A stretch of DNA of 64,000 nt from Candidatus Moraniibacteriota bacterium (GCA_046116545.1 CP175956.1:1170912-1234911); one strand, 5' to 3'; numbered from the stretch's first letter, positions 5,706 through 62,170 are shown. The notes: generated by a model not told the origin, from the sequence alone. Numbers and translations are program-made.

Positions 5706-5708
5706 GTT

Positions 5709-29492: not shown

Positions 29493-30296
29493 TTACATAT
29501 AACCTAATGATCGTAATTTTTGCATTGCAAATTCTTTTTCCTTATCCTGTGCCCTACCATCCCTTTCATCTGTATTTTCATTTTTTAATTCCTCTATGAT
29601 CTCATCAATTGTTATCGCACTACTATTTATTGGATTTGTTATTTGTTGACATCCCAAACTACGATATCTTTTACCATTTTTTGCAAAATATAACTCATTT
29701 ACTGGCATATTTTCTTGTTTGATATATTCCCAAATTTCAACTTCAGTCCAGTTCAATATTGGATGTATACGAACATGTCCTCCATCTTCTATATTTTGAG
29801 TATAAACATCACCTACTTGTGTATCATGATTCATATAATCCCAAGAAAAATCTGATTTTCTAGGAGAAACTACTTGTTCTTTTGCACGAATTCCGTGTTC
29901 ATCAGCTCTAATACCTACAAATAATCCTTTAATTTCTTTTTCTTTAACTATATCTTGTAATGGTACTGTTTTTAAATTATGACATACTGTCACAGCATCA
30001 TGTGATTCATATGACATCCCTTCTTTTATAGCTCTTTCATTCGTTTTTATAATTAAATCTAATTCTAATTCATTAGCATAATAATCACGAAATTCATACA
30101 TTTCTGGAAATTTAAATGTTGTATCTATATGAATGACTGGAAATGGAATATTACCAAAAAATGCTTTTTTACAAAGCCAAAGTAATACAGTGGAATCTTT
30201 CCCCATACTCCAAAGTAATGCTAGATTTTTTTGTTGTGCATACATTTCACGGATGATATAAATACTTTCATCCTCACGCTCTTTCAAAATACTCAT
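29493..30296 (-). CDS. cysD: Sulfate adenylyltransferase subunit 2 (PAPS reductase/ATP sulfurylase small subunit family)
   Basis: LLWSMGKDSTVLLWL (SxGKDS PP-loop), HIDTTFKFPEMYEFRD, both CysD-like. Confidence 0.7.
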   Translation of the reverse strand: MSILKEREDESIYIIREMYAQQKNLALLWSMGKDSTVLLWLCKKAFFGNIPFPVIHIDTTFKFPEMYEFRDYYANELELDLIIKTNERAIKEGMSYESHDAVTVCHNLKTVPLQDIVKEKEIKGLFVGIRADEHGIRAKEQVVSPRKSDFSWDYMNHDTQVGDVYTQNIEDGGHVRIHPILNWTEVEIWEYIKQENMPVNELYFAKNGKRYRSLGCQQITNPINSSAITIDEIIEELKNENTDERDGRAQDKEKEFAMQKLRSLGYM

Positions 30297-32242: not shown

Positions 32243-32251
32243 AATTCACAC

Positions 32252-32536
32252 CTATATAAAAAATGAAATACAAATCCATACAATACCAATTAAAACTAAT
32301 ACTGCTAATATAATTATTAATTTTCCAAATACATTCCAGTTCCAAAGTTTTTTAATTTTCATCAATGTTGCAACAGCAAGGCTCCCAAAAAATGCAAATA
32401 CCAATCCAATTCCAGCACCAAGTCCTCCAACAACACTCCCAGCTGTTCCAGGGTCAATGTAGGCATACACACTTTGTACTTGCACAGCAGTTACTATTAC
32501 CAACGATAAACACAGACTTATATACTTCATATTCAC
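32252..32536 (-). CDS. Small membrane protein (signal peptide plus Gly-zipper TM)
   Basis: 94 aa; GGLGAGIGLVFAFFG motif; lies in the operon between two AlkP-family genes. Confidence 0.4.
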   Translation of the reverse strand: MNMKYISLCLSLVIVTAVQVQSVYAYIDPGTAGSVVGGLGAGIGLVFAFFGSLAVATLMKIKKLWNWNVFGKLIIILAVLVLIGIVWICISFFI

Positions 32537-32544
32537 TTTTTATT

Positions 32545-33999
32545 TTATTTAAGATACCCTAATGACTTTAATATCTGGATTTCCTCTTCTGTTAATTTTA
32601 TCTCTTCATTTGTTATATTTCCAGCCTTAAGCATCAACTCTAACTGATCAATCATTGCAGTTGCTATTTCTGGATTTCCTTCTAAAACATTCTCATCTTC
32701 ACCATTATTCATATCATATAATACATACTCTATTTCTTCTACATCATTCACAGAATTCACAAATCGAATCAACTTCCATTCATCCGTTCGTAGTGTAGCT
32801 CGCAATCCCTTACCAAACTTCTTTTTGCCATTATTAATTTTCTGTTTTTTACCAGCTTTTGCCTCTACCAATTCATTTTCTACATATTTTAATATACTAA
32901 ATGTAAAATCATTTATTTTTGCAACTTCTCCATTTATAAGTGGCACTAAACTACTTCCCTCAACCTCTTTTGGTACATCTATACTTAACATATCCAAAAT
33001 TGTAGGTAAGATATCTATTGATTGAGTTAACTCCTCAACCTCTTCTCCAATATATTTATTTGCTGGATTATATATTACTAATGGAACATGTATTTCTTCA
33101 TCATAAACTGTCTGATAATGCCCTCTAGTTAATTGATTTGGTGTATTAGGTGCAAATAAACCTTTTTCATGTTCTCCAAAAGCTTCCCCGTGATCTGAAG
33201 TTATAACTATGATAGTTTTATCATCAATTTTCAACTCTCGCAATAGCTCAATTATACGGTTAAATTGATAGTCCACATGTTTAATTTCACCATCATAACG
33301 TCTTTGCATATACAAAAACTTATCAAATTCTTCTTCAGGACTATCTGGATAAACATATTCTGCAGGTGGCTTGTATGGATCATGAGGATCCCAATAATGA
33401 ATCCATGTAAAAAATTTACGCTCACTATTATCTTGTATCCATGTAATCGCCTTATCAGTTACTTCTTGTGCTGTATTATCCTTTCTCGCTGCAGGTGTTA
33501 AGTCAATCATATCGAACCCAGGCACCAAACTGTGTACCATTTTACTCCCCATAAATGCAATTGTTGCATAATGATTTTCTTTTAAGATTTTTGCAATAAA
33601 AGGCAAATCTGTATCATCCGGCCCACCATCTTCTATAGGTATTCCTGGAGAGTAATGTTTATGTGTATGAGGATATGTACCACTCATGATAGACCAATGC
33701 GATGTTGGTGTGTATGGCATCTGTACAAAATTATTTTTAAATAGAATGCCCTTTTTTGCTAATTTATCAATTAAAGTTGTCGTGTCCCTATCATAACCAT
33801 ACGAAGAAAAATGATCTGCTCTAGTTGTATCCATTGTAACTAAAATTACATTGCAATCTTCACATGACTCTCTCACAACGTCCATGATATCAGACTCTTT
33901 TTTTGGTAGCACCTCTCTACTATAAAAGATTACTACTGTGATTATTAATAAGATAACAACTGCAATAATTGATTTTTTTTCTTTTACTTGAATTTTCAT
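32545..33999 (-). CDS. Sulfatase-like hydrolase/transferase (alkaline phosphatase superfamily), membrane-anchored; probably not a formylglycine sulfatase
   Basis: N-terminal TM; metal-site motifs MDTTRADHF and SDHGE; no C/S-x-P-x-R sulfatase signature found. Confidence 0.6.
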   Translation of the reverse strand: MKIQVKEKKSIIAVVILLIITVVIFYSREVLPKKESDIMDVVRESCEDCNVILVTMDTTRADHFSSYGYDRDTTTLIDKLAKKGILFKNNFVQMPYTPTSHWSIMSGTYPHTHKHYSPGIPIEDGGPDDTDLPFIAKILKENHYATIAFMGSKMVHSLVPGFDMIDLTPAARKDNTAQEVTDKAITWIQDNSERKFFTWIHYWDPHDPYKPPAEYVYPDSPEEEFDKFLYMQRRYDGEIKHVDYQFNRIIELLRELKIDDKTIIVITSDHGEAFGEHEKGLFAPNTPNQLTRGHYQTVYDEEIHVPLVIYNPANKYIGEEVEELTQSIDILPTILDMLSIDVPKEVEGSSLVPLINGEVAKINDFTFSILKYVENELVEAKAGKKQKINNGKKKFGKGLRATLRTDEWKLIRFVNSVNDVEEIEYVLYDMNNGEDENVLEGNPEIATAMIDQLELMLKAGNITNEEIKLTEEEIQILKSLGYLK

Positions 34000-34085: not shown

Positions 34086-35717
34086 TTATCGTGCACTACT
34101 CTGCTCTTCGTTTGCTACTTGTGGTCTACCAAATATGCTTATTATTATTTTTTTCTTTATAGTTTCAAATTCTTTCATTCCAAATACTGACGTTACTACC
34201 AAGTATGTAATTATTCCAAAACCTCCTGCTATCACTAATTGAACTATTACAGCCCACACAAATTTTAAAGGCAACAAATCTCCCAAAATATTTCTAGTAA
34301 AATATGTAACTATAAATACAACAAAAGTAGAAATAGCTATCTGCATAGCTGTTCTAAGTGTATTTCTATATTCACAATCTTCTACATGTCTATGTAATAT
34401 TACAAACAATAAAGTTGCATTCAAAATGGCAGTTGCTGAAAACGCAACCGCTATAGCATAAATGCCAATTTGTCGTATTAACACTGTTATTACAATTACA
34501 TTAAAAATTTGAGCCCCTATTGCTATATATAACGGTGTCTTTGTGTTTTGCATAGCATAAAAACCTCTTGCTAAAAGAGGGATTACACTCTGAGCAAATA
34601 AACTCACACAAAGTATTCCAAGGACTTGATAAGTTAACGTTGTATCATCTGCATCAAAATGTCCAGCTCCATATACAACCCTTACAATTTGCTCTCTAAG
34701 TACAAAAAATATAATACTGAGTGGCACTGCATAATATAATATCCTACGCAATGTTTGTGATAATATTCCTGCAAATGCTTTAAAGTCCTTTATGGCAAAT
34801 TTATTTGATAACACTGGAAATGCTGCAATTGCAAATGGAACTCCTACTAATCCTAGTACTACACTCTGGATATTTATTGCAAAAGTAAATACTGTAAGGC
34901 TTCCTGCAGCTAATAATGATGCGAAGAAAGTTATTAATAATAATGATATTTGACTTGAAGCACTGGAAAACATCCTCGGCAACATTAACCTTAATATTTT
35001 AATAACATCTTTATTTTTGTATGGATTTTGCTTTAATAACGTAATTTTTACATCAGTAAATCTCACAGCTATTATGTGTATCATAAAATGTAATAACGCT
35101 CCTAAAACAACACCATATGCCAATCCTATCAACCCCATCTTTGGTGCTATTATAGTTGCTCCAATTATTATTCCAATATTATAAAATATAGGAGCTGTTG
35201 AATATAATACAAATCTTCTAAAAGATACTAGCACTCCACCTAAAACTGCACTTGCTGCTAGAAAGATTGGACTTAAAAACATAATTCTTGCAAGATCTAC
35301 TGTCTCTGCCATTTTTTCAGCAGGAAATCCAGGAACAATTACATGCATAAGCGTTGGTGCAAATATTATCCCAATAATTGACATTACCACCATAGCAGAA
35401 ACAACTACAGCAAACACATCACTAACAGCTTTCCACGCTCTATCTTTATTATCTTCCGTTATAAGCTTGCTAAATACTGGTATAAAAGCAGCACCCAATG
35501 CACCCATAACTAATAGCTCAAATGTTAGATCAGGAAGCCTAAATGCAGCGTAATAAATATCCAAATCATCACCAGCACCATAATGAGATGCTAATATTCT
35601 ATCCCTCACAAGACCCAAAATTCTACTAATAATACCAAAAAACGCAACAACCAATGCTCCTGCAGCAATTGATTGTCTTGTTGACTTTGTAACAAATTGT
35701 TTTACATTAGCTATCAT
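34086..35717 (-). CDS. murJ: Lipid II flippase MurJ/MviN
   Basis: 543 aa, about 14 TM; N-terminal region with conserved Arg residues typical of MurJ (GLVRDRILASHYGAGDDLDIYYAAFRLPD). Confidence 0.85.
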   Translation of the reverse strand: MIANVKQFVTKSTRQSIAAGALVVAFFGIISRILGLVRDRILASHYGAGDDLDIYYAAFRLPDLTFELLVMGALGAAFIPVFSKLITEDNKDRAWKAVSDVFAVVVSAMVVMSIIGIIFAPTLMHVIVPGFPAEKMAETVDLARIMFLSPIFLAASAVLGGVLVSFRRFVLYSTAPIFYNIGIIIGATIIAPKMGLIGLAYGVVLGALLHFMIHIIAVRFTDVKITLLKQNPYKNKDVIKILRLMLPRMFSSASSQISLLLITFFASLLAAGSLTVFTFAINIQSVVLGLVGVPFAIAAFPVLSNKFAIKDFKAFAGILSQTLRRILYYAVPLSIIFFVLREQIVRVVYGAGHFDADDTTLTYQVLGILCVSLFAQSVIPLLARGFYAMQNTKTPLYIAIGAQIFNVIVITVLIRQIGIYAIAVAFSATAILNATLLFVILHRHVEDCEYRNTLRTAMQIAISTFVVFIVTYFTRNILGDLLPLKFVWAVIVQLVIAGGFGIITYLVVTSVFGMKEFETIKKKIIISIFGRPQVANEEQSSAR

Positions 35718-35778
35718 CTTTGATAATTCTATAATACTGTATAACTATATAGCGTTTTACCCACTAAATCAACCATTA

Positions 35779-38208
35779 TTAACCCTCTCTAAATACTACT
35801 CCGTGATATCTATCTATTTTCAAATCATTTTTCATAATATCATCATCACTTGAATTCCACACCTCTGCAAAACTATCATGTAATTTTACATTACTCTCAA
35901 TTATAGATCTCTCACTACCAGACTGTTTCTGAAATAGTACTGCATATGACCCAAATTTTCCAAATTCATCCGACTCAAAATCAACACGAAATGGCAATCT
36001 ATATTTATATGTTACTGTCACACTTTCCTGTGGAGATACATACACCCAATTAGCAAACACTGTTTTTCCATGTTCATCATAAATTCTAGTACCAGTTTCT
36101 TTATCTATATAGATACCATTTTCTTCTCTTTCTACATCAGGATCTCTTTCATAACCCAATTCATCATAATTTAATCGCTCCTCATTAATCTCCCTAGTGT
36201 GACCTTCCACTGATATAAATTCAGAACCTTTTGGAACATAAATTCTCATATAATTGGAATTAACAGCGTCCCACCAAGGAAATCCTGTTTTACCACCTTC
36301 ATGTACTCTACGCACTTGTACAGTATTTATAATATAACCATAACCATCTATCTCAGCTGTATGTTTAATTGTTTCATCTATAACCCCATCAGTTTTAAAC
36401 CCATTTATATTTGTATTTATCACACTCAAATAATCTTTATCTGTTTGTAAAATAGATCCACTCCAACCCTTATCTTCAATAATATTTTGCACCTCCTCAT
36501 CAGACATATAAATCATAATATGTCGCTCCTTTAATCCACTAGACACGGCTTCGATTAATTTTGATAAATTTTTTGGATTTTCTCTATTTGATAATTTTTC
36601 TATTAATATTGGCATTAAATCTGATAATACTTTCTTTGGCTGCTTTTGTGCTTCCTCATCTTCATTTAATTCATTGACTGAAATCTTTAAACTCTCATTT
36701 TCAATATCATCTACACTATCAACATTTACTTCTTTATTATTATCACTTTTTGATTTATAGTTTTCTTCATCCTCTACCTCATCTTGCATTACCTCCATAA
36801 AATTATTACTCGTCAAAATCATTTCATACTGTGGTAACGCTATTGGTCCTGTGATTTCTAAAAATTTTTCCATCATAACAGGTGTGATAGTTATAACACC
36901 ATCAACTGTTGGACCACCTGTTCTTTCATAAAAATCCATTGCTTTTTTTGCTGACAACGGAAAATCAACAAACCAGTTACTATCATGCATGCTCCAATTG
37001 GCTGATATTTTTTGTATTGGCAACGGGGGTACAATTCTATCCATCAATTGACCATCTGGATTGTATATATCATCAACTATAATCTTCTCTATATGACCAT
37101 TCTTCATTTTCAAAATGCCATAACTACCTATAAAACCTCCCGTGGCTCTCATCTCATGGTTATTTTGGAATAAAAATAAATATGTTTTTTGTCCATTTGC
37201 TCCCAATAATGTCTCTATTGCACCTCTAGATTCAACAGCTTCATTCAATGATTTTGCAACAATCGGTAATGTTTCTTTCATTTGCACAAATGTCTCTCTA
37301 TACTCACTTGGAACATCATCTAAATGAACTTGAGCTATATGTTCATTTGCTTTTGTAATATCATCATTAGCAATTTCCATCCTATCAGCCAGCATGCTAT
37401 ATAATTTCAAAAAAGAAATATGTGCACCATCAACAGATACAATTGGATTATCTGAGCCTATAACCTCTGGAATTACAGAATGAAAGGCTGTTGCAGTATG
37501 TGTCAAATATTTTCCAGCCTCTATTATATGATTTCCACTTGATAATTTTGAGGCTCCTGGTATAAACTGTGATATAAATGTCGCAAATCTATTTATTTTA
37601 TTCATTTCTTCGGATGCAAATAGAAATTCATCATGAGCATTTTTCAATTCTTCTCCAGAACTATCAAAATCACTAACACTTAACCCAGCTGCTGCTACCT
37701 TAATCGAATCTATAGCCCTCTTACCAGCTCCATCTATACGATTTTTTACAGCCCATGCTGTTCCAATGAATAAAAAACTACTCATAATAAAAACGAATGC
37801 TACTGCAACAATAGCAAATCGAGATGATATATATTTTGACATTATCACACTATTTTGTGAAAAAATTGGCAAATCTGACAAAGTAAATGTTGCGTATTTT
37901 TCTTCAGTTTCTTGATTATCTGACTCAAATTTAATTTGGTCATCTTCTTTGTTATCAATCTTTATGCTTTCATTCGCATAATTTTCTTCAGAATCCATTT
38001 CTGAATTTGCTCCCATTGCAACATCGTATTGCGTTGCCCCTATTGCACTATCTTCAAAATCATTTAAATGTTCAACATCATAACGCATCCCTAATTCATA
38101 CACATGATACTCATTATCTTTATTTTCTTGTGTGCCAAAATCAGATGACTGAACATCTTTATTAAAATTATTTTCAACTTTATTTTGTTTTGATACTACA
38201 CCATCCAT
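35779..38208 (-). CDS. DUF4012-like protein with acidic N-terminal region and TM anchor
   Basis: 809 aa; NNHEMRATGGFIGSYG core that I recall as the DUF4012 signature; this family often flanks glycosyltransferase loci. Confidence 0.55.
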   Translation of the reverse strand: MDGVVSKQNKVENNFNKDVQSSDFGTQENKDNEYHVYELGMRYDVEHLNDFEDSAIGATQYDVAMGANSEMDSEENYANESIKIDNKEDDQIKFESDNQETEEKYATFTLSDLPIFSQNSVIMSKYISSRFAIVAVAFVFIMSSFLFIGTAWAVKNRIDGAGKRAIDSIKVAAAGLSVSDFDSSGEELKNAHDEFLFASEEMNKINRFATFISQFIPGASKLSSGNHIIEAGKYLTHTATAFHSVIPEVIGSDNPIVSVDGAHISFLKLYSMLADRMEIANDDITKANEHIAQVHLDDVPSEYRETFVQMKETLPIVAKSLNEAVESRGAIETLLGANGQKTYLFLFQNNHEMRATGGFIGSYGILKMKNGHIEKIIVDDIYNPDGQLMDRIVPPLPIQKISANWSMHDSNWFVDFPLSAKKAMDFYERTGGPTVDGVITITPVMMEKFLEITGPIALPQYEMILTSNNFMEVMQDEVEDEENYKSKSDNNKEVNVDSVDDIENESLKISVNELNEDEEAQKQPKKVLSDLMPILIEKLSNRENPKNLSKLIEAVSSGLKERHIMIYMSDEEVQNIIEDKGWSGSILQTDKDYLSVINTNINGFKTDGVIDETIKHTAEIDGYGYIINTVQVRRVHEGGKTGFPWWDAVNSNYMRIYVPKGSEFISVEGHTREINEERLNYDELGYERDPDVEREENGIYIDKETGTRIYDEHGKTVFANWVYVSPQESVTVTYKYRLPFRVDFESDEFGKFGSYAVLFQKQSGSERSIIESNVKLHDSFAEVWNSSDDDIMKNDLKIDRYHGVVFREG

Positions 38209-38211
38209 ATT

Positions 38212-39336
38212 TTAAATTTTGTTTGTATATATATCATGTATTTCTTGTGCCATTTTTTGCCAAGAATATTTTTTTGCATTCTTATAACCATCTTGCACTA
38301 GTCTTTTTCTTAACTCATTATCATTAGAAATAGTTTTCATCGCATCTGCAAATTCTTCTACATTCTCCACATCACAATATAATGCACCATTATCAGATAA
38401 TATTTCTCTCATACATGCATGTTCTGATGAAAGAACTGGAACACTCAGCAACTGCGCTTCTAATGGAGGAAGTCCAAATCCTTCATACAACGAAGGAAAT
38501 ACAAAAAATTCAGATTCTTTGTATAAAGCAAATAGCATTTTGTCAGTAACTGTACTCAATATATTAACGCCTTTCACATCATATTTGTTAATATATAATT
38601 TTAATTCATTGTAAAAATAATCATTCTTACCCACTAAAATCAATTCTTTAACTGTACCACCAGATTTAACATATTTATCAAATGCATCTACTAATTTGTA
38701 CAGATTTTTATGAGGATACGCATTACCAACATAAAGCATGTACTTATTCATTATACCATACTTTTTTATAATACTCTCACTATCTTTTATATCAGTATCC
38801 ACAATTTCAGCAGATTCCTTCACTACGTCAATCTTGTCGCAAGCAAATTCATATTTATTGCAAATATCTGACTTTGTAAATTCTGATACAGCAATAATTC
38901 TGCTAGCTCTAGTAATTGCACTAAATATTACAAACCTATACATAATGTATTTAATCCAATATACAAATGCATTACGAGTTGATGCTTTTTTTGTATGATG
39001 ATACAACAATATAAGATCATGTATGGTAACCATAAATTTACCAAAATACAAAACCGGTACATTAAAATGCGGAAAATGTACAAAATCACATTTTTGTTTA
39101 TACAGTACAAATGGGAAAAATATTTGTTCAGCAAAAGAATACCACCGATAATCTGCTTTTACTTTTGTGAATTTTTTATTTTTAGGAACATATTCATCAA
39201 AATTATTTTCACGTAAAAAAATAACATATTCATTTTCACAATCAACGTCCTCTAAGTGTTCTATTAATTTTTGAGTATACCTACCAAGTCCCTTACTGTC
39301 AGGACCAAAGAAACGTGCATCTATTCCAATTTTCAT
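38212..39336 (-). CDS. GT4-family glycosyltransferase
   Basis: C-terminal EGFGLPPLEA motif (the E-x7-E-like region of GT-B/GT4). Confidence 0.75.
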   Translation of the reverse strand: MKIGIDARFFGPDSKGLGRYTQKLIEHLEDVDCENEYVIFLRENNFDEYVPKNKKFTKVKADYRWYSFAEQIFFPFVLYKQKCDFVHFPHFNVPVLYFGKFMVTIHDLILLYHHTKKASTRNAFVYWIKYIMYRFVIFSAITRASRIIAVSEFTKSDICNKYEFACDKIDVVKESAEIVDTDIKDSESIIKKYGIMNKYMLYVGNAYPHKNLYKLVDAFDKYVKSGGTVKELILVGKNDYFYNELKLYINKYDVKGVNILSTVTDKMLFALYKESEFFVFPSLYEGFGLPPLEAQLLSVPVLSSEHACMREILSDNGALYCDVENVEEFADAMKTISNDNELRKRLVQDGYKNAKKYSWQKMAQEIHDIYTNKI

Positions 39337-39362
39337 ATAATTAAATTATACCAAAATTATGA

Positions 39363-40502
39363 TTACATTTCCATACATTTCATAAATATAAATGAAGAAT
39401 CTTTCCATTGGGTTTCTCCTATTTGCTTTTCTCCAACATTTAAGACTTCACTTATTTTTTTATCTATGATTGAAAATTTCATAGCATCTTTTAGCTCATC
39501 TGGACGCATTGGGTTTATCATTATTGCGTTTTTACCAATGACTTCTGGTAAAGACGTTGTATTTGAAGCTATTACGGGTGTTCCACACGCCAATGATTCT
39601 AATGGCGGAAATCCAAAGCCTTCAAAAAATGAAGGATATATGAACAATGAAGCCAGAACATACAGTGATTCTTTTTCTTCTTCTGGCACATCTGTTATAA
39701 AAATAATATCATTAACATATTTTGATTTATTTGCTGTATCATATATATTTTCACTCTTCCAACCATTTGCTCCAGCTATCACCAATTTATGAGTAATTTG
39801 TTTATTCTCAAATCTCAATTTATCATACGCTCTTATGATATTTGCTATATTCTTTCGAGGCTCTATTGTTCCAAAATATAAAATAAATTTATACGGAAGA
39901 TTATATTTTTCTTTTACATCTATCATTTCTAAGGCATTTCTATCGATTTTTCCACTTATAAGTGATTGTCCATTTAGTGTTACACTGACCTTTTTTTTAT
40001 CAATGCCATATGTCTGACACACATCAACTTTAGTAGCTTCTGACACTACAAAAATATGCTCAGCACAACTAGCTATTAATCTGGAATTTACAAAAAAATG
40101 CCAAAAACTACGTTTCCACGAAAATGTAGTTTCAAAATGTTCAAATGACAAATCATGAATTGTAAGAAATAAGGGAACGCTACATGACACAGCATAAAAA
40201 TTGCTATTTGGCATAAAAAATCTATCAACACCACCGCATAGCTTATCCAACCTAGGATAATTCAGAAACCACATACTTAAATTTAATAACTTATTTGGAA
40301 TTGCATATTTTTTTACAGTTACATTCTCATATTTTGTTGCCCAAGAAAAATCAATATCAACATTTTTCCACGCATTAAAAAAAAGAATATATTCATTATT
40401 CCTATCAAGTTCAAAAATAGCAGTTAATGCTTTTTTTGAGTACTCTTCAATTCCTGTGTTTTTCCCTCTAGCAAAACACCTAACATCTATGCCTATGCGC
40501 AT
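39363..40502 (-). CDS. GT4-family glycosyltransferase
   Basis: EGFGFPPLESLACGTPVI motif. Confidence 0.75.
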   Translation of the reverse strand: MRIGIDVRCFARGKNTGIEEYSKKALTAIFELDRNNEYILFFNAWKNVDIDFSWATKYENVTVKKYAIPNKLLNLSMWFLNYPRLDKLCGGVDRFFMPNSNFYAVSCSVPLFLTIHDLSFEHFETTFSWKRSFWHFFVNSRLIASCAEHIFVVSEATKVDVCQTYGIDKKKVSVTLNGQSLISGKIDRNALEMIDVKEKYNLPYKFILYFGTIEPRKNIANIIRAYDKLRFENKQITHKLVIAGANGWKSENIYDTANKSKYVNDIIFITDVPEEEKESLYVLASLFIYPSFFEGFGFPPLESLACGTPVIASNTTSLPEVIGKNAIMINPMRPDELKDAMKFSIIDKKISEVLNVGEKQIGETQWKDSSFIFMKCMEM

Positions 40503-40505
40503 AAT

Positions 40506-41108
40506 TTATTTATCATCTATCATATAATGCCTTATCATAACAGCCCAAAATGCCACAAAAAATCCCAAAAATAAACTAACTCCAAAAATAAATATTAATG
40601 ACTTATTAGCATTCTCAGTTATTGGCTCACTACCCAAAATCACAAACCAATTTTCTTGATCCTGTTTTTGATTTAATTTTTGGGATTCCTCGTTTAATAA
40701 AATTACTAATTTTTTGGAAACGTTTTTTGCATCTTTTTTGGAAAAAGTTACAAATTCCACATTCACAACCTGTGATGAAAGTCTTTTAGCATCAAACTTC
40801 TTTTTATTAAAAAGCATGCTATTTGTATCAATTTCATCAAATACATTTACAATAATGTGCGGAGCTTGAATCCATCTAACTACAGTATCCGCAAATCGCT
40901 CATCCGCTTGCAATCTATAAAAATCATCATAAGAATATTCTTTTACTTTTACTGACACATCTCTAGTTATGTTCAATGTCAATATAGTTTTATAAGTTTG
41001 TGTTTGAGTAAAATAAAAAATACTTCCAATAATTAAGAAAATAGCTATTATACCAAAAAATAACTTCTTATGTATTTGAAACATTTTAAAAAATTCTTTT
41101 AACTCCAT
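40506..41108 (-). CDS. Small bitopic protein, Wzz/polysaccharide co-polymerase-like (tentative)
   Basis: TM near both the N- and C-terminus with a soluble middle; sits inside the glycosyltransferase cluster. Confidence 0.35.
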   Translation of the reverse strand: MELKEFFKMFQIHKKLFFGIIAIFLIIGSIFYFTQTQTYKTILTLNITRDVSVKVKEYSYDDFYRLQADERFADTVVRWIQAPHIIVNVFDEIDTNSMLFNKKKFDAKRLSSQVVNVEFVTFSKKDAKNVSKKLVILLNEESQKLNQKQDQENWFVILGSEPITENANKSLIFIFGVSLFLGFFVAFWAVMIRHYMIDDK

Positions 41109-41112
41109 AAAT

Positions 41113-42219
41113 CTATTTATTTATCATATGCTCATTAAACGCTTTTTCAACGTAGTCCTTTATTTTACCCTTGAAAATTTCTCTGTCAAATTTTTTAGCT
41201 TTATTTCTAATATAATTTGCATCAAAATCATACTCATCAAACTCCTTCATTACCGTATTCAAGGAACTTACCGATTGTGTATCAAAAAATAATCCTGTTT
41301 TTTCATCCTCTACATGCTCTACAATATCACCACCCTTATACGCAATAATTGGCCTTCCTGCAGACATTGCTTCTATGGCAACAATTCCAAAGTCTTCTTC
41401 TTGTGGAAATATAAATGCTTTTGCATTTTCATAATAATTAGCCAAATCATCATCTTCAACTCTCTCTAAAAATTCTATATTATCATTTGCTCTCTTTTTG
41501 AGCGCCTTCAATTCTGGTCCTCTTCCTATTATTTTAAGTGGCAAACCATTCTTATTAAAAGCATCTATTGCTATATCATGTTTTTTATATGCAATAAGTC
41601 TACCAACCATCAAAAAATAATCTTCAGATGCATTTTTATTTACATGAAAGTTATTAACATTAACAGGAGGATTAATTACAAAAGAATCCTTATCATAATA
41701 TTTCTTGATTCTTCGTGATACAAATTCTGAATTTGCTATATATTTATCAACTCTATCACTACTAACTCTATCCCAAATTCTGACTCCATTCATCATAAAT
41801 GGCACAGCCTTTTCCACAATCTTTGGCAATCCGAAATCTCTTGTGTACTTTTGACAATCATCCCAAGCATATCTCATAGGTGTATGTACATAAGAAATAT
41901 GAAGTGTTTCCGGTCTAGTTATTATACCCTTTGCAAAACTAGAAGAATCTGACAAAACAATATCAAATTTAGAAAAATCAAACTCTTCTATTGCCATAGG
42001 CATAAGAAGTGGAAATATTCTATGTCTCTTTTTTGAAAAAGGCATTTTTTGTAGAGATGACGTATGTATATTGCAATCAGAAAAAGTATCTCCCATAACA
42101 TCTTTGTCATAAATGAGAGTATAAATAGGTGCATCAGGAAACAATTCACAAAAACACTCCAAAACTTTTTCAGCACCACCATGCTGCACTAGATAATCAT
42201 GTACTAAAGCTATCTTCAT
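41113..42219 (-). CDS. GT4-family glycosyltransferase
   Basis: GIVAIEAMSAGRPIIAY GT-B C-terminal motif; its start overlaps the stop of the upstream gene. Confidence 0.75.
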   Translation of the reverse strand: MKIALVHDYLVQHGGAEKVLECFCELFPDAPIYTLIYDKDVMGDTFSDCNIHTSSLQKMPFSKKRHRIFPLLMPMAIEEFDFSKFDIVLSDSSSFAKGIITRPETLHISYVHTPMRYAWDDCQKYTRDFGLPKIVEKAVPFMMNGVRIWDRVSSDRVDKYIANSEFVSRRIKKYYDKDSFVINPPVNVNNFHVNKNASEDYFLMVGRLIAYKKHDIAIDAFNKNGLPLKIIGRGPELKALKKRANDNIEFLERVEDDDLANYYENAKAFIFPQEEDFGIVAIEAMSAGRPIIAYKGGDIVEHVEDEKTGLFFDTQSVSSLNTVMKEFDEYDFDANYIRNKAKKFDREIFKGKIKDYVEKAFNEHMINK

Positions 42220-42557
42220 TATTTAAGTATTGCGTCAGCAATCCAACCAACAACTGTAACAATTATAAGTCCCCATACTGCTGGCATAAATCCATCTATT
42301 GTCATACCTGGCACAAAAGTTATCAACCAAAAAACTAAAATATTTATCAAAAGCCCAAAAAGACCTAATGTCAAAAAAGTAATAGGCAGTGCAAATAATT
42401 TCAAAAGAGGTCTAACTGTAACACTCAAAACTCCAAATATAAATGCAGCCAATATTGCTGTCGGCCAAAAACTATCTACAGTGATCCCATCCACAAAGTG
42501 TTGTGCAAGCAATAATGATCCCGCTACAACCAAAAGTTTGATTATATATTTTATCAT
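42219..42557 (-). CDS. Phage holin family 4 / DUF360 four-TM membrane protein
   Basis: 112 aa; AILAAFIFGVLSVTVRPLLKLFALPITFLTLGLFGLLINILVFWL matches the PF04020 pattern. Confidence 0.65.
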   Translation of the reverse strand: MIKYIIKLLVVAGSLLLAQHFVDGITVDSFWPTAILAAFIFGVLSVTVRPLLKLFALPITFLTLGLFGLLINILVFWLITFVPGMTIDGFMPAVWGLIIVTVVGWIADAILK

Positions 42558-42687
42558 AATATGATAATAACAAATTACATTGTCATTATAGCATTAATTC
42601 TGTCATAAGAACAAAAACAATAAAAATGACCGCATTAAATCCAAATTTAAATAGGTAATTAATTATTTATTGTTTCAAGTTTGTTGT

Positions 42688-45255
42688 CTACTGATAAAAC
42701 CCACTAGCATCAGAGGTAGCAGTATAAGTAACAGAACCAGTATATATTCCTGAAGGTTGTGATGGTGATACATCAACTTTGTAACATACATCAGTTGTTG
42801 ATGAAGTTGAATTATATGCTGTGTGTGCTGCTACTGCTTGAGCTGTTTGTGGTACACCTGCGTATTGGGCATCATCTGATGTTGTTCCTTCTTCGCATAG
42901 GTTTCCTGAGGTTGTCCATACGTTATTAAACGTATTATTTGTTGTATCTGCTTGTGGAAATTGTATTACACTGAATCCTAGACCTTTTGTTGTTGGAGCG
43001 TTCCATGATTCTGTTACTTTTGTTGTTTCATTGAATTGTGTTAGGTCTGGTATTTCATCTGTATTATTTGAATGTACTAGAGTTGTATTTGAAGCTCCAT
43101 TATCATTTATCATTGACAGGTAGTAACCTTGGGTATCATTTGTTGTTACTATACAAGTTGATTGTCCTACTGCTGGAGTTCCTGCTATTACTATTCCTGG
43201 ATTTGCTATTGTTCCTAGTATTACATCGTAATCTCCTGTTACACCATCTTTATCGTAACAATCCATTGATAGGGTTGCATTTACTTCTACATTTAGGTTT
43301 AGGTCATCTATTCCTGATATTGTTCCATCTCCGTTTACAATATAAGTTGTTGCATGGTTTGTTGTGAATGTACATATTCCGTTTGTTACTGTACATGTTG
43401 TATGTAGGACTTCAGTTCCTTGTGCTGCTCCTTCCTCTCTCGAAAGTACATCCAATATCATTCCATTGTAAGCTTCGCTTACAGTTATTTCCATTGTTAT
43501 ATCATTAGTAAAGTCTAATGATATTCCTGGTACACCTATTCTTACTGCTCCTACTGCATTTGGTAGATTTACTTGTTCACTTGTTAATGTATTTTCTGTT
43601 ATGAAGTTTTCAAAGTTAAAGTTTCCATTTAAACTTTCGGTTATTACTGTATTATTTGGAAATATTGCATTTGTTGTATTTGATTGGAATGTTACTTGTA
43701 CTTGGGTTGTTGTTTGGGTTGTGTTATCTATTGTTCCGTTGTCTACTGTTATATATCCATTATCTACTGATTGTTGCATTTCTGAATTATTTGGGTCTGT
43801 GATTATCACTTCTTCTACTACATCATCTACTGATATTATTATTTGTTTTTCGAATTGTTCTTGTAATGATTTGTATATATTTGAATTTATATTCTTTGTT
43901 GCATCGTTATAAAAATTTGTAACAACTAGATAATTTTCCATTCCTATCATAAAGTATTCCCAACTTGTTGCACCACTTGTTGCGATTGATTGAAATTCTA
44001 CAAAAGTTGAACCGTTCCATTTGTAGATTTTTGAGTTTATATTATATGTTGAACCATTATAATTATTTGCAACAACTAAATAATGTTCTGTGTCTATTGT
44101 AAAGTATTCCCAGTCTGATGCACCATTTGTCGCAATAGACTGAAACTCCACAAAAGATGTTCCATTCCATTTGTAGATTTTTGAGTTTATATTTGTTGAG
44201 CCATTGGAATAATTTGCGACTACCAGATAATCATCTACACCTATTGTGAAATGCTTCCAACCCGATGCACCGCTTGTTGCGATTGATTGAAAATCTACAA
44301 AAGATGTTCCATTCCATTTGTAGATTTTTGAGTTTATATTATATGAACCACTATATGAATTTGCAAGTGCCAAATAGTTATCTGTACCAATTGTAAAGTA
44401 TTCCCAACTATTTGCGCCAGTCGTTGCAATTGATTGAAATTCTACAAAAGATGTTCCATTCCATTTGTAGATTTTTGAGTTTATATTTCTCGATGAACCA
44501 TTATAATAATTTGTAACAGCTAGATAATCATCTATACCTATTCTGAAATGTTCCCAATTTCTTGCACCATTTGTTGCAATTGATTGAAGCACTCCAAAAG
44601 ATGTGCCGTTCCATTTGTAGATTTTTGAGCTTATGTTATATGTTGAACCATTATAATAATTTGTAACAGCCAAATAATCATCGGTACCTATCGTAAAGTG
44701 TTCCCAGTCTGATGCACCGCTTGTTGCGATTGATTGAAAATCTACAAAAGATGTTCCATTCCATTTGTAGATTTTTGAGTTTATATTATATGTTGAGTTA
44801 TTATGATAATTTGCAACAACCAGATAATCATCTGTGCCTATTGTGAAATATTCCAAGTCTTGTGCTCCATTCGTTAAAATGCCTTGTTCCAATACAAAAT
44901 CAGAATATGAATCAGTTGTTTTCACTCTTGTTGAATAGTTATTATCGCCAGGAGTACCTCCTAGGTCTTCTGGATTTTCATAATCTGGTGTAAAGTTTAG
45001 ATTTAGATTATCTCCATCTATTGTGAATTTGGAATTATCTTCGTCTCCTATTCCATTTATTAATTCATATGTGTATGGAGAATTTCCTCCTGTTGTAGTT
45101 AAAGTTCCTGAAGTTGTTCCACTTGGTGTATTTTCATCTATACTATCTGAACTTCCTCCATCTATTTGTATATCTGTTATTGCTGCTTGTGTTGTCTGTG
45201 TTAAAAAAAGTATAACAATCAATGTTATTGGGAATAGTAATATATATTTTTTCAT
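42688..45255 (-). CDS. Secreted 855-aa protein: N-terminal cadherin-like domain plus eight EAR/EPTP-like beta-propeller repeats plus a C-terminal region
   Basis: Signal peptide; IDENTPSGTTSGTL...YTYELI...FTIDGDNL cadherin-like pattern; 8 repeats SKIYKWNGTSFVDFQSIATSGASDWEHFTIGTDDYLAVTNYYNGS resembling LGI1/ADGRV1 EPTP repeats (IYKWNG, YLVVAN). Confidence 0.7.
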   Translation of the reverse strand: MKKYILLFPITLIVILFLTQTTQAAITDIQIDGGSSDSIDENTPSGTTSGTLTTTGGNSPYTYELINGIGDEDNSKFTIDGDNLNLNFTPDYENPEDLGGTPGDNNYSTRVKTTDSYSDFVLEQGILTNGAQDLEYFTIGTDDYLVVANYHNNSTYNINSKIYKWNGTSFVDFQSIATSGASDWEHFTIGTDDYLAVTNYYNGSTYNISSKIYKWNGTSFGVLQSIATNGARNWEHFRIGIDDYLAVTNYYNGSSRNINSKIYKWNGTSFVEFQSIATTGANSWEYFTIGTDNYLALANSYSGSYNINSKIYKWNGTSFVDFQSIATSGASGWKHFTIGVDDYLVVANYSNGSTNINSKIYKWNGTSFVEFQSIATNGASDWEYFTIDTEHYLVVANNYNGSTYNINSKIYKWNGSTFVEFQSIATSGATSWEYFMIGMENYLVVTNFYNDATKNINSNIYKSLQEQFEKQIIISVDDVVEEVIITDPNNSEMQQSVDNGYITVDNGTIDNTTQTTTQVQVTFQSNTTNAIFPNNTVITESLNGNFNFENFITENTLTSEQVNLPNAVGAVRIGVPGISLDFTNDITMEITVSEAYNGMILDVLSREEGAAQGTEVLHTTCTVTNGICTFTTNHATTYIVNGDGTISGIDDLNLNVEVNATLSMDCYDKDGVTGDYDVILGTIANPGIVIAGTPAVGQSTCIVTTNDTQGYYLSMINDNGASNTTLVHSNNTDEIPDLTQFNETTKVTESWNAPTTKGLGFSVIQFPQADTTNNTFNNVWTTSGNLCEEGTTSDDAQYAGVPQTAQAVAAHTAYNSTSSTTDVCYKVDVSPSQPSGIYTGSVTYTATSDASGFYQ
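43905..44930. repeat. Coding tandem repeats (about 147-nt period, 8 copies) for the EAR/EPTP-like blades
   Basis: ccatttgtagatttttgagtttatatt recurs at a regular period. Confidence 0.75.
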
Positions 45256-45340
45256 ATTTATTTTTATTTTATATCATCATGTATTAGGACATGCTGTCAT
45301 TTAGTATATCATCAATTATCATTTTCACAAAAAATAAGTA

Positions 45341-46762
45341 CTAGTTTTTTCTTACACGTAAAACTGCCCAAGGTGTTTTGAGTAATATTTTAGCATCAAG
45401 CAATAATGACCAATTTTCTATATAATAAACATCTAGACGATATTCATCTTCGAAATCTAAATCACTCCGCCCTGAAATCTGTGCCATACCTGTTATACCT
45501 GGTTTTATAGTTAACAATCTCCTATGGTATTCCCGATATTTGTCTACTTCTCTTTGTTGATGTGGTCTCGGACCAACTAAGCTCATATCCCCTTTCCAGA
45601 CATTGAAAAACTGTGGGAATTCATCTATAGAAAATCTTTCCAAAAATTTACCAATCCAAGACTTACGAGGGTCATTTTCTATTTTATAAATCGGACCAAC
45701 TCTAACTGACTGATTTTTAATTAATTCTTTTTCATATTTTACAGCTTCTTTGTAATTTGGGTTTTTCTCAGTTGTACACCATTTCCATTTAAAATATCTA
45801 AATTTATACACATAAAACTCTTTTCCATTTGATCCAATTCGTGCATTTTTAAATACTATCGGAGCATGTATATCTTCAAGCTTTACTAAAATTGCGGCTA
45901 CTATAAGTATGGGGCTTGTAAGTATAATCAAAATACTAGAAATTATTACATCTACAATTCTTTTGAGAATTTTTCCCCATCCATCCAACGGTGTATGCAT
46001 AACCTCTATAATTGGCTCACCCTCAAATATCATCATTTCAAATTTAGTTGTTTGAAGTGAAGCTGGTATAAATTTATAGGTTATATTGTTTATTGCACAG
46101 TAATCATGTAATTTCATTAGCAAATCATCTGGCATGGCTGATTCATGTACAATTACCTCATCAATACCATCCCTTTCTTGAATTTTTTTAATCTGACGAA
46201 TATTAATGTAATCAACATGATCCACTATTTTATAGCCTAACCGCTTCTGCGTTCGTATAACCTGACACAAATATTTAATTTTATCATTTGAGCCAATCAG
46301 CAAAACACGATGAACGCCAATTTCATTTCTCACTAAAAGAAATTTTTGAAAAGCATGCATCATCACCCTGCCAATTGATACTCCAGCTATCGCCATGAAC
46401 CATGCAGCTACAATTATAAATCGTGAAGAAAACCATTCTCGTTGCAAAAAGAAACCAATCATAACTAAAACAAGTACAATCGTCATGCCTTTTGTAACAT
46501 AATAAGTTTCTTTCCAAAATTTCCTAGTGGACCTGATATTATAAAGTCCTTCAAATGCAAAAATTATAATTGCAACAACTGCTATAAGAATTGTAAAGTT
46601 TAAATATTGATCAAAAGACACATTATAGATTCCTTCTTTATTTATAATTGATTGGACTTCTGCAGTATGTCTTAACTTATAAGCAAATAAAGATGCTCCG
46701 ATTATCAATATAAAATCAACAAAAACTTGTATAAAACTAAAAAATAACTCTGATTTTTTCAT
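45341..46762 (-). CDS. Polyprenyl glycosylphosphotransferase (WbaP/bacterial sugar transferase family), the priming enzyme
   Basis: 473 aa; N-terminal TM helices; C-terminal PRPHQQREVDKY...IKPGITGMAQISGRSDLDFEDEYRLDVYYIENWSLLLD, the hallmark of the bacterial sugar transferase domain. Confidence 0.8.
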   Translation of the reverse strand: MKKSELFFSFIQVFVDFILIIGASLFAYKLRHTAEVQSIINKEGIYNVSFDQYLNFTILIAVVAIIIFAFEGLYNIRSTRKFWKETYYVTKGMTIVLVLVMIGFFLQREWFSSRFIIVAAWFMAIAGVSIGRVMMHAFQKFLLVRNEIGVHRVLLIGSNDKIKYLCQVIRTQKRLGYKIVDHVDYINIRQIKKIQERDGIDEVIVHESAMPDDLLMKLHDYCAINNITYKFIPASLQTTKFEMMIFEGEPIIEVMHTPLDGWGKILKRIVDVIISSILIILTSPILIVAAILVKLEDIHAPIVFKNARIGSNGKEFYVYKFRYFKWKWCTTEKNPNYKEAVKYEKELIKNQSVRVGPIYKIENDPRKSWIGKFLERFSIDEFPQFFNVWKGDMSLVGPRPHQQREVDKYREYHRRLLTIKPGITGMAQISGRSDLDFEDEYRLDVYYIENWSLLLDAKILLKTPWAVLRVRKN

Positions 46763-46789: not shown

Positions 46790-47157
46790 ATATTATTGGA
46801 AGACAGTTAATAAGCCGGATTCTGTCAAAAAATAAATTTTGGATGACAATCTATCTTGTTTATATGTTGCCATATAAATCCTTGCGACTCTTTCCAATTA
46901 CTTGGAATACGGTCTTGCACTTCAGTAAGGATTTAGCCGTTTCACTCTCTGTGTTACCACAAAGCATTATCCAAATAAATTTGGATAGTTTTTTACTTGC
47001 GCAAAAAACCGTCACTGCTCGCACCTCGTAGATTACTCTAGACGGGTATTACCCGCTACCGTTTTTTTGGTCATAAAGACCAAACTAGTGTCCGGACTTT
47101 CCTCTCCGAAATAAATTTCAAGAGCTGTCATCAAACGGTCTCCCAATAATATAAATG
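46790..47157 (-). ncRNA. rnpB: RNase P RNA (bacterial)
   Basis: Both conserved P4 strands are present on the minus strand: GAGGAAAGTCCGGAC (reverse complement of 47090-47108) and ACAGAATCCGGCTTAT (reverse complement of 46805-46826); terminal P1 pairing GGGAGAC/GTCTTCC; length about 370 nt. The + strand ORF 46786-47031 is spurious. Confidence 0.8.
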
Positions 47158-61870: not shown

Positions 61871-62170
61871 CTATGCTATAAATATATCCTGAACAATTCC
61901 TTCTTTTTCTTCAAAATCAACACCCCGCGTATTAAGTGCCTCAATCATCTTATCACCAAATTTACCTGCGATAATTTTATCAACTGACTTATCTGCTAGC
62001 ATTTTAGCAACTCCCAATCCTGCACCTCCCCCTCCTGTGCTAAATGGATTTTTTATTGTTTCAAGTAAAGTTCCATTTTCATCAAAAATTAAAAAGAATG
62101 GTGCACGTCCTGCTTGTGAAGATACTGTGGAATCTATATTTTTATCCATTGATCCAACTGCAATTTTCAT
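61871..62170 (-). CDS. NifB/NifX-family (dinitrogenase FeMo-cofactor-binding-like, MTH1175-like) small protein
   Basis: 99 aa; MKIAV.S...LD..V....GRAP.F.IFD.......E..KN pattern and a central GGGAG loop. Confidence 0.55.
   Translation of the reverse strand: MKIAVGSMDKNIDSTVSSQAGRAPFFLIFDENGTLLETIKNPFSTGGGGAGLGVAKMLADKSVDKIIAGKFGDKMIEALNTRGVDFEEKEGIVQDIFIA

Follow-up and report, generated by a model that had tools for sequence, protein, structure and literature searches.

Gene content and boundaries

The locus occupies positions 34086-46762 of the window, the whole 64-kb stretch of DNA that was analyzed, from a Moranbacteria-type CPR bacterium. An earlier note on this DNA described nine co-oriented minus-strand genes there and named their families. 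All nine reading frames are confirmed on that strand, and comparison of their translations with the curated Pfam and NCBIfam HMMs matched the families, except that the Wzz-like protein scores below threshold and that the 'cadherin' portion of a gene labeled EAR/cadherin has no Pfam match. The genes, together with the RNA gene that precedes them, are as follows.

34086-35717, minus strand: MurJ-family MOP flippase, 543 aa (PF03023, E 7.5e-80; TIGR01695)
35779-38208, minus strand: DUF4012 protein, 809 aa (PF13196, 104.5 bits against a gathering threshold of 28, E 9.2e-30, over residues 338-477 only)
38212-39336, minus strand: GT4a, 374 aa, the constant upstream partner of the DUF4012 gene across a 3-nt gap (PF00534, Glycos_transf_1, E 1.4e-26)
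39363-40502, minus strand: GT4b, 379 aa (PF00534, E 5.5e-28)
40506-41108, minus strand: Wzz/PCP-like small 2-TM protein, 200 aa (PF02706, 23.3 bits, under the gathering threshold of 25.5)
41113-42219, minus strand: GT4c, 368 aa, cytoplasmic (PF00534, E 2.3e-28; zero TM segments)
42219-42557, minus strand: PF04020/DUF360 ('Phage_holin_4_2') small 4-TM membrane protein (PF04020, E 1.1e-26)
42688-45255, minus strand: secreted 855-aa protein with a seven-bladed EPTP/EAR propeller (PF03736, E 1.3e-96, seven repeats)
45341-46762, minus strand: PGT, a large WbaP/CpsE-type priming polyprenyl-phosphate hexose-1-phosphate transferase, 473 aa (N-terminal TM segments and a Bac_transf domain)
46795-47143, minus strand: rnpB, the RNase P RNA gene (Rfam RF00010, 109.3 bits against a gathering threshold of 100, E 1.6e-32)

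The genes are indeed tightly packed, as had been noticed. The gap between DUF4012 and GT4a is followed by gaps of 26, 3 and 4 nt, and the start of GT4c overlaps the stop of the PF04020 gene by 1 nt. The EPTP gene is flanked by gaps of 130 and 85 nt. The upstream limit of the locus is rnpB, which lies outside the system. On the 3′ side of murJ there are five further co-oriented and tightly packed genes at 28293-33999, omitted from the earlier description, and these are a separate mobile cassette. A promoter scan of the locus gave matches at chance level only, and the terminator-like matches fall within annotated genes, the sole exception being one hairpin upstream of rnpB.

The priming transferase is well defined as to family (PF02397, E 1.8e-58; TIGR03025, 340.5 bits against a cutoff of 295.6), while its scores with both the WcaJ and the WbaP equivalog models are under cutoff; its ortholog in a close relative (L001) is 89% identical. 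The Wzz-like protein has TM segments at residues 16-34 and 172-190 in a TM scan, a topology that fits a PCP protein. The Wzz match of its ortholog in another close relative (L086) is likewise weak, and there is no kinase partner at the locus. The PF04020 protein was also considered as GtrA-like, and this was rejected as the sole match is non-significant (E 2.6). The MOP flippase scores as MurJ and not as Wzx, with 297.7 bits against a cutoff of 235.55 for the NCBIfam equivalog TIGR01695. The simplest reading is that it is the housekeeping lipid II flippase, which either happens to serve the locus or doubles as its flippase. Genes for sugar nucleotides, Wzx and Wzy are all absent from the locus, and its product therefore cannot be named. 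Elsewhere in the window a 590-aa multi-TM protein (56491-58263), weighed as a possible cryptic GT-C or Wzy, has zero Pfam matches.

Conservation of the gene order in Moranbacteria

How well is this arrangement conserved? We compared the neighborhood in 80 related, syntenic Moranbacteria loci, and find that their common core is GT4-DUF4012-MurJ. The full order PGT-PF04020-GT4-Wzz-like-GT4-GT4-DUF4012-MurJ is kept in the closest relatives (L001, L003, L004, L006/L086 and L007), and again at lower identity in L015. Since the same order recurs in independent genomes, the arrangement is not due to chance. In 67 of 75 loci the DUF4012 gene has GT4a upstream of it at a distance of no more than 400 nt, bearing out the statement in the earlier note that DUF4012 recurs beside glycosyltransferases in small-genome bacteria, and MurJ follows immediately 3′ of DUF4012 in 55/74 (within 10 kb in 62/74). 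This triad persists even where housekeeping genes flank it. The remaining genes are found less regularly: GT4b is present in 30, and GT4c upstream of DUF4012 in 26, of the 50 loci with enough sequence, and the PGT was seen in only 12 of the 50 loci whose upstream sequence reaches 7.5 kb or more.

The EPTP gene is different. It occurs in none of the 80 related loci and is therefore a lineage-specific, recent insertion with no conserved part in the system. In the closest relatives, which are free of it (the six loci L001, L003, L004, L006, L007 and L086), the PF04020 gene directly follows the PGT, and the spacer just upstream of PF04020 in the window aligns with the PGT-PF04020 spacer of L001, so that the ancestral spacer has been kept. 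The encoded protein is a domain mosaic with 3048 representative matches, and among the best 150 of these the only full-length relative is the query itself. The view that this embedded secreted repeat protein belongs to the locus thus falls, and as an insertion its position is uninformative on protein glycosylation.

The earlier note also pointed to a missing Wzy polymerase or ligase. None came to light within the window or the 80 syntenic loci: there is no Pfam match to Wzy in the scanned reading frames of the window, and a jackhmmer search with a Moranbacteria Wzy_C was empty for the window and the 80 loci. Counterparts sit elsewhere in related CPR genomes. Wzy_C is found near a second, short DUF4012 paralog, and together with a true PF03816 LCP at another locus; true LCPs occur in the genomes of L059, L068 and L100. 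What seems missing is probably a matter of location. The variable neighbors in the 80 loci were inspected as candidate Wzy or LCP genes and rejected, the representatives being of the housekeeping kind: RecJ, a Mur ligase, SHMT, TrxB, an NTP transferase, TerC, ProS-like tRNA synthetases and an HNH endonuclease. Matches to 'CysN' after MurJ in relatives were likewise discarded as sulfate adenylyltransferase; the one in L086 is LepA by Pfam (601 aa), and those in the other inspected loci are also about 600-610 aa.

The DUF4012 protein

The 35779-38208 product had been called DUF4012-like, and its match to PF13196 is well above the gathering threshold. It can be divided into four regions.

37819-38208, minus strand: residues 1-130, acidic low-complexity N-terminus, presumably cytoplasmic (from the translation)
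37204-37818, minus strand: residues 131-335, a single TM helix (about 131-152) followed by a long helical-bundle stalk (TM scan; AF2)
36445-37203, minus strand: residues 336-588, alpha/beta core made of the Pfam domain and the following helices, with a predicted LCP-like fold
35782-36444, minus strand: residues 589-809, C-terminal beta-sandwich domain

The N-terminal region is variable or absent in homologs (query coverage 82-88%). The TM scan and the AF2 model agree on one TM helix followed by a large domain outside the membrane; in model 1 the stalk is built from helices H2-53 to H204-210. The core carries the motifs FQNNxEMRATGGFIG, NPDGQ, HDSNW and DGV..TP. Within it, residues 483-520 form an insert that is acidic and of low complexity. 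A Foldseek search with the predicted structure matches the LCP protein 3pe5_A with E 2.3e-4 over 278/278 columns. The protein is thus predicted to have an N-terminal membrane anchor and an extracytoplasmic alpha-beta-alpha core of LCP topology, and its architecture equals the generic LCP arrangement of TM segment, accessory domain, core and C-terminal domain (PMC7831098). The suggestion that DUF4012 is a candidate ligase or transferase accordingly gains support at the level of fold, from the resemblance of the predicted core to the LCP glycopolymer transferases. The beta-sandwich resembles OST1/ribophorin I of the eukaryotic oligosaccharyltransferase; because M1 aminopeptidase N-domains and DUF4424 match it too, this similarity of the modeled domain is a fold-class match only. 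Folds of glycoside hydrolases or transglycosylases did not turn up for the protein.

At the level of sequence no link to the LCP family was detected. PF03816 gives no Pfam match to the protein even at E≤10, and hmmsearch of PDB sequences with two DUF4012 profiles returned no LCP. When DUF4012 alignments were compared with 10 annotated LCPs by hhalign, in local, greedy and global modes and whether or not members from Firmicutes and Actinobacteria were added, the probability was below 1% (E 0.06-0.16; reversed control 0.41). In LCP enzymes three conserved arginines and an aspartate bind the pyrophosphate and Mg2+ (PMC7831098). By alignment this arginine cluster appears not to be conserved in DUF4012, where R354 is the only invariant core arginine across CPR, Firmicutes and Actinobacteria; the other polar core residues invariant across phyla are Q348, E352, D436 and N469. 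The most conserved motifs sit in low-confidence loops of the model.

DUF4012 proteins come in two forms. In the short paralogs the stalk is absent and the TM helix runs directly into the core. The short form lies beside FtsW-MurG-MurC-MurB in both of the genomes looked at, and the long form lies beside MurJ in 55 of 74 loci. Each form has as its partner a 2-TM protein whose external loop measures ~140 aa; these two partners, of which the Wzz-like protein belongs to the long form, have a common topology, with undetectable sequence similarity.

The family extends to other phyla. It is the fam000574 of Meheust et al. 2019 (PMC6744442), who noted its enrichment in CPR and in bacteria of Gram-positive type and its link to capsule/EPS clusters, with no structure, partner genes or mechanism given; it had been singled out as one of the few families common to these two groups. 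New beyond that study are the triad of GT4, DUF4012 and MurJ, the distinction of two classes of paralog, and the predicted resemblance to the LCP fold. In the EPS locus of Bifidobacterium longum 105-A DUF4012 (BL105A_0406) adjoins the PGT and Wzz (PMC5412050), and in a Rhodococcus cluster with an ABC transporter it adjoins the PGT. Clusters of Streptomyces and Rhodococcus with a gene of the O-antigen-ligase family contain it as well. In the five clusters the 9-10 kb around DUF4012 show no annotated LCP, a count that is soft for the plasmid clusters as the PLSDB gene tables are incomplete. DUF4012 thus accompanies both Wzy-type and ABC-transporter export, a pattern that suits action after export and speaks against a role as the polymerase.

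Function of the locus and comparison with known systems

CPR bacteria (Patescibacteria) are mostly uncultured episymbionts that attach to their hosts via the cell surface. To our knowledge, very little has been established on the way in which their surface glycans are made and fixed in place. A broad search of the literature for glycosylation in CPR gave archaeal and unrelated papers only, and we found no paper connecting LCP proteins to CPR.

The gene families and the conserved synteny agree with the earlier note in that this is very probably a system for assembly and export of a lipid-linked glycan, and apart from DUF4012 it is an ordinary polyprenol-dependent glycan assembly cluster. The PGT, by its family, would load hexose-1-phosphate onto the lipid carrier at the cytoplasmic face, and the three soluble GT4 enzymes would lengthen the glycan to a tetrasaccharide or beyond. 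Flipping would fall to the neighboring MOP transporter of the MurJ family, most likely also the lipid II flippase of the cell, and outside the membrane the 2-TM Wzz-like protein and the membrane-anchored DUF4012 would handle the flipped glycan. Any polymerization would be performed by a Wzy_C encoded elsewhere in the genome, as in the relatives. It is rather likely that DUF4012 acts on the glycan of the locus after export. We go further with some hesitation, to a reading that we judge just short of probable: a conserved Moranbacteria envelope-glycopolymer locus on polyprenyl-phosphate, for a secondary cell-wall polysaccharide or something capsule-like, with DUF4012 as an LCP-like protein of proposed wall transfer. 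From the predicted fold and the gene context, its alpha/beta core may bind the polyprenyl-(pyro)phosphate-linked glycan and hand it over to an acceptor in the wall, for which peptidoglycan is the likeliest candidate. That DUF4012 is itself a catalytic LCP-like transferase is possible on the predicted model, and on balance doubtful. It is not simply 'the' LCP of these bacteria, because true LCPs are present in three related genomes, as noted above. In a broader and rather unlikely form of the idea, DUF4012 would be a divergent branch of the LCP fold with another catalytic set (E-x-R plus Asp/Asn), ligating lipid-linked polysaccharides to wall or proteins in CPR, Actinobacteria, Bifidobacteria, Chloroflexi and others. 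If true, a Pfam DUF that counts thousands of members would acquire a function, and the polysaccharide clusters devoid of an LCP would be explained.

The divergence from the LCP arginine cluster suits a DUF4012 that is not an enzyme. It might be a scaffold, regulator or co-polymerase-like stalk that organizes export or chain length, or couples the polymer to peptidoglycan synthesis, its LCP-like fold serving only to bind the lipid-linked glycan. The helical stalk of the long form recalls PCP proteins, both forms have the 2-TM partner with its external loop, and a true LCP and Wzy_C are encoded elsewhere in related genomes. Yet the five residues invariant across phyla, R354 included, are grouped in the core loops in a manner more like an active site, and the short paralogs lack the stalk altogether; we consider this explanation unlikely.

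The persistence of the triad with no PGT, GT4b or GT4c nearby raises the question of whether GT4a-DUF4012-MurJ is instead a peptidoglycan-related module, for lipid II modification or wall remodeling, that adjoins the polysaccharide operon incidentally. DUF4012 might then be a hydrolase or transglycosylase rather than a phosphotransferase, with which the wealth of acids and amides (E, D, N, Q) plus aromatics among the invariant residues, as in carbohydrate-active enzymes, would agree. The MurJ score and the Mur genes abutting the short paralog point the same way. But in Actinobacteria and Bifidobacterium DUF4012 lies in exopolysaccharide clusters beside the PGT and not with peptidoglycan genes, the search for a hydrolase-type fold was negative, and envelope genes cluster in small genomes anyway, all of which makes this improbable.

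There is as little to favor protein O-glycosylation, in which DUF4012 would move a lipid-linked oligosaccharide to Ser/Thr-rich surface proteins and not to peptidoglycan, as the earlier note supposed: its main argument, the embedded surface-protein gene, is lost with the EPTP insertion, the Ser/Thr-rich tracts on the window's surface proteins (among them a run of Thr in a 1485-aa protein) are generic among CPR surface proteins, the OST1-like sandwich has its other matches, and no PglL/PglB/Wzy_C-type (or STT3) oligosaccharyltransferase was found in the window, even if the closest relatives keep a small SdrD_B-domain surface protein immediately 5′ of the PGT and a locus with no polymerase could plausibly make a short oligosaccharide.

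The link to LCP proteins at the level of fold provides a concrete hypothesis for DUF4012, that it acts on an exported lipid-linked glycan, and this can be tested in the cultivable carriers Bifidobacterium longum, Rhodococcus and Streptomyces. Compared with the LCP phosphotransferases (Cps2A, TagT/U/V, S. aureus LcpA and A. oris LcpA), DUF4012 has no detectable similarity in sequence or profile and differs in the arginine cluster, while it has a beta-sandwich in addition, to which the long form adds the helical stalk; true LCPs co-exist with it in related genomes. The locus as a whole is closest in plan to the Gram-positive Wzx/Wzy capsule/EPS loci, such as the streptococcal cpsA-E type and the eps locus of B. 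longum 105-A (PMC5412050), with which it has in common a large PGT, several GT4s, a 2-TM PCP-like protein, a MOP flippase and a large membrane-anchored extracytoplasmic protein. Unlike those loci it has no Wzy, tyrosine kinase/phosphatase pair, sugar-nucleotide genes or PF03816 LCP, and its flippase scores as MurJ rather than Wzx. The PGT-DUF4012-Wzz order of B. longum 105-A is directly comparable (PMC5412050). The role and position of the streptococcal LCP protein CpsA are taken here by DUF4012, a member of the same Pfam family as fam000574 (PMC6744442).

A probable glycan assembly locus with a conserved core

The window has a GC content of ~0.31, and carries nearly all its genes on one strand; the best homologs all belong to Moranbacteria/Patescibacteria. 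Between 34086 and 46762 there are exactly nine co-oriented ORFs, all on the minus strand. These are the nine genes described in the earlier note, all present in the same region, and their families are confirmed by curated HMMs.

Genes of the locus (34086-46762, in order of increasing coordinate)
minus, MurJ: PF03023, E 7.5e-80; TIGR01695, 297.7 bits (equivalog cutoff 235.6)
minus, DUF4012 protein, 809 aa: PF13196, E 9e-30, residues 338-477
38212-39336, minus, GT4a glycosyltransferase
39363-40502, minus, GT4b glycosyltransferase
minus, Wzz-like protein, 200 aa: sub-threshold Wzz match (23.3 vs 25.5 bits); TM segments at residues 16-34 and 172-190
41113-42219, minus, GT4c glycosyltransferase
minus, PF04020 protein, 112 aa, four TM segments
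42688-45255, minus, EPTP protein, 855 aa, secreted: seven EPTP repeats, E 1e-96
minus, PGT, polyprenyl-phosphate sugar-phosphate transferase, 473 aa: TIGR03025, 340.5 bits (above cutoff)

The PF13196 match bears out the DUF4012-like identity suggested for the large protein. The reported tight spacing, with overlap of a glycosyltransferase start and the holin-family stop, is seen as intergenic gaps of 3, 26, 3 and 4 nt and a single base shared by the PF04020 stop and the GT4c start; the EPTP gene is bounded by gaps of 130 and 85 nt. Pfam did not reproduce the cadherin label given to the N-terminal part of the EPTP protein.

The apparently intergenic 486 nt 5′ of PGT contain the RNase P RNA gene (46795-47143, minus; Rfam RF00010, 109 bits), flanked on its other side by an SdrD_B-domain gene, and this sets the upstream boundary of the locus. 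The PGT start codon lies just 32 nt downstream of the RNA gene. Downstream of MurJ, five more tightly packed genes (28293-33999) are a separate cassette.

How general is this arrangement? A scan of genome contigs gave 80 loci with an ortholog of the long DUF4012 protein at 40-69% identity, whose ORFs were compared with the window proteins by BLASTP. Of the 75 loci with room for it, 67 have a GT4a ortholog no more than 400 nt upstream of DUF4012. On the downstream side, MurJ is at most 400 nt away in 55 of 74 loci and at most 10 kb away in 62 of 74. Fifty loci extend upstream by 7.5 kb or more; 30 of these have GT4b, 26 GT4c, 20 the Wzz-like gene and 12 PGT. The exact order PGT-PF04020-GT4c-Wzz-like-GT4b-GT4a-DUF4012-MurJ is found in the closest relatives, L001, L003, L004, L006/L086 and L007, in all of which a small SdrD_B-domain protein gene precedes PGT, and at lower identity in L015. 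Variable insertions are frequent between GT4b and GT4a in the relatives, for example of a nucleotidyl transferase, and in more distant relatives the GT4a-DUF4012-MurJ triad is surrounded by housekeeping genes.

On the family assignments, PGT would prime polyprenyl phosphate and the three GT4 enzymes would build at least a tetrasaccharide, and the lipid-linked glycan could then be flipped by the neighbouring MurJ-type MOP transporter. Outside, it would be received by the Wzz-like protein and putatively by DUF4012, which may transfer it, or present it for transfer, to a wall acceptor. We regard it as highly likely that the locus is a lipid-linked glycan assembly and export system, and on balance probable that DUF4012 acts on the glycan after export.

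The DUF4012 protein and its short paralog

Regions of the DUF4012 protein
N-terminal ~130 aa, acidic and of low complexity
131-152, single TM helix
to ~335, long helical stalk
336-588, alpha/beta core, containing the Pfam domain and an acidic insert (483-520)
589-809, beta-sandwich

Ten annotated plasmid-encoded LCP proteins were aligned and compared by hhalign with DUF4012 alignments, in which the short paralogs and sequences of Lachnospira, Rhodococcus and Streptomyces were included. The match was never significant (probability <1%, E 0.06-0.16 vs 0.41 for the reversed control), and LCP is absent from the results of DUF4012 sequence searches of PDB and Pfam. Within the core Q348, E352, R354, G357-G358, D436-G437 and N469 are invariant across phyla. 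Compared by eye, E352-x-R354, an acidic-x-Arg element right after the first strand, parallels the GxDxR of the LCPs, but DUF4012 has one invariant arginine where the LCPs have a cluster of three, and its conserved motifs fall in loops of low model confidence. For these reasons we claim a predicted LCP-like fold and not membership of the LCP family. That DUF4012 is a catalytic LCP-like transferase is a tentative proposal, which we hold to be less likely than not; a role as non-catalytic scaffold seems unlikely.

The earlier note had found polymerase and ligase missing here. Neither Wzy_C nor LCP is detectable in the window or the 80 long-type loci, except for a canonical LCP ~7.5 kb downstream in the relatives L059 and L068. 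Yet canonical LCP genes and genes of the polymerase/ligase families do exist elsewhere in these bacteria, and location is the simplest explanation for their absence here. On one CPR contig (L100) the order is Wzy_C-GT4-LCP-GT2, with the LCP matching PF03816 at 107 bits. Besides the long form, Moranbacteria have a short DUF4012 paralog (~456 aa) that lacks the helical stalk, its TM segment leading straight into the core.

Short DUF4012 paralog loci in related contigs
L085 1-16000
L087 1581-17062
L017 752-5527

Its gene order in two genomes is Wzy_C, GT4, ACS-like (acetyl-CoA-synthetase-like, oppositely oriented), beta-helix, GT4, 2-TM, DUF4012, TrmD, FtsW, MurG, MurC, MurB. The short paralog thus adjoins lipid II genes in both genomes examined, and the long form commonly stands beside MurJ; all the same, we think it improbable that GT4a-DUF4012-MurJ is a peptidoglycan-related module.

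The beta-helix gene heading the relatives' short-DUF4012 locus has its ortholog (jackhmmer E 6e-95) in a right-handed, pectate-lyase-like beta-helix protein that stands alone on the opposite strand of the window (19843-20907, plus). At 56491-58263 (minus), a 590-aa protein with at least six TM segments in its N-terminal half and no Pfam match even at E<=5 could be a candidate unrecognised membrane glycosyltransferase or polymerase.

The EPTP insertion and the neighbouring cassette

The embedded surface protein, which the earlier note lists among the genes of the locus, is not one of its conserved members. Its gene was found in none of the 80 syntenic loci. In the relatives PF04020 follows PGT after ~40 nt, and immediately 5′ of PF04020 the window sequence can still be aligned with this ancestral spacer as present in L001. 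The protein is a domain mosaic, with 3048 representative matches and no full-length relative among the best 150 of them. The EPTP gene is therefore a lineage-specific insertion without functional implication for the locus. A protein O-glycosylation system is an unlikely function of the locus. The junctions lie at 42558-42687 and 45256-45340. The last PGT bases seem to be repeated 5′ of PF04020 (AAGAAnAAnTAG-like), as if the insertion had duplicated a short stretch at its site.

Cassette directly 3′ of MurJ (28293-33999, minus; gaps 8, 9, -4 and 0 nt)
exported sulfatase-family protein, 484 aa, with Thr, not Cys/Ser, at the formylglycine (nucleophile) position
3-TM protein, 94 aa
exported AlkP-superfamily 'Phosphodiest' protein, 649 aa
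CysD-like protein (NF003587, 308 bits)
CysN-like GTPase without an APS-kinase domain

The threonine means that the first is probably not a true sulfatase. This cassette was found in none of the 80 syntenic loci; other CPR genomes (L098, L100) carry it with the gene order kept, at sites unrelated to this one, and in each case a large surface protein follows. A reduced AP-sulfatase-PAPS_reduct form is present in a contig of Woesearchaeota, a DPANN archaeon (L099), and the 649-aa protein has homologs in DPANN archaea at 45-50% identity. The cassette might sulfate a surface polymer or give it a phospho-modification.

Two very large surface proteins with Ser/Thr-rich tracts are encoded at 23756-28213 (minus, 1485 aa, with CarboxypepD_reg domains and a run of ~10 threonines near residue 190) and 9567-18872 (minus, 3101 aa); in other genomes, proteins of this kind come after the CysD/CysN cassette. 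Elsewhere in the window a Mur ligase adjoins a FemAB-family peptidyl transferase of peptidoglycan cross-bridge synthesis (4362-6644 and 3776-4255, both minus), and a PilZ-domain protein nearby may point to c-di-GMP signalling in this small genome. Adjacent ORFs of 141 and 175 aa with a 4-nt overlap (62167-63116, minus) correspond to the N-terminal and the C-terminal half of ArsP_1 family permeases; either the gene has been split or frameshifted, or the permease truly consists of two pieces.

DUF4012 in cultured bacteria and the LCP comparison

The locus type is already known, and the association of DUF4012 with CPR and EPS clusters has been noted before (PMC6744442, PMC5412050). What this analysis adds is the conserved triad GT4-DUF4012-MurJ, the distinction of two DUF4012 paralog classes (next to MurJ and next to FtsW-MurG, respectively), proof that the gene for the surface protein was inserted, and the predicted LCP-like fold. 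The literature mentioning DUF4012 is sparse; we found in it neither structure nor mechanism, and no literature link between LCP and CPR.

In the EPS locus of B. longum 105-A the order is PGT-DUF4012-Wzz (PMC5412050). On a Rhodococcus qingshengii plasmid it is ABC-transporter permease, ATPase, PGT, DUF4012, esterase, GT and rfb genes. The 'putative esterase' right after DUF4012 on the Rhodococcus plasmid L102 (10217-11203) belongs to PF00756 (E 4e-34), a family to which the Ag85 mycolyltransferases of mycobacteria, enzymes active on the arabinogalactan of the cell wall, also belong. The clusters next to DUF4012 on Streptomyces and Rhodococcus YL-1 plasmids carry a BY-kinase, an O-antigen-ligase-family gene or both, and in Rhodococcus DK17 the neighbour of DUF4012 is a fucose/pyruvyl polysaccharide cluster. 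In the PLSDB gene tables, which are incomplete, none of five clusters has an annotated LCP within 9-10 kb of DUF4012. Pathways of the Wzy type and of the ABC-transporter type are thus both accompanied by DUF4012, which also co-occurs with Wzy_C; this speaks against DUF4012 being a polymerase and favours a post-export step shared by the two routes. The LCPs themselves were identified by the same reasoning.
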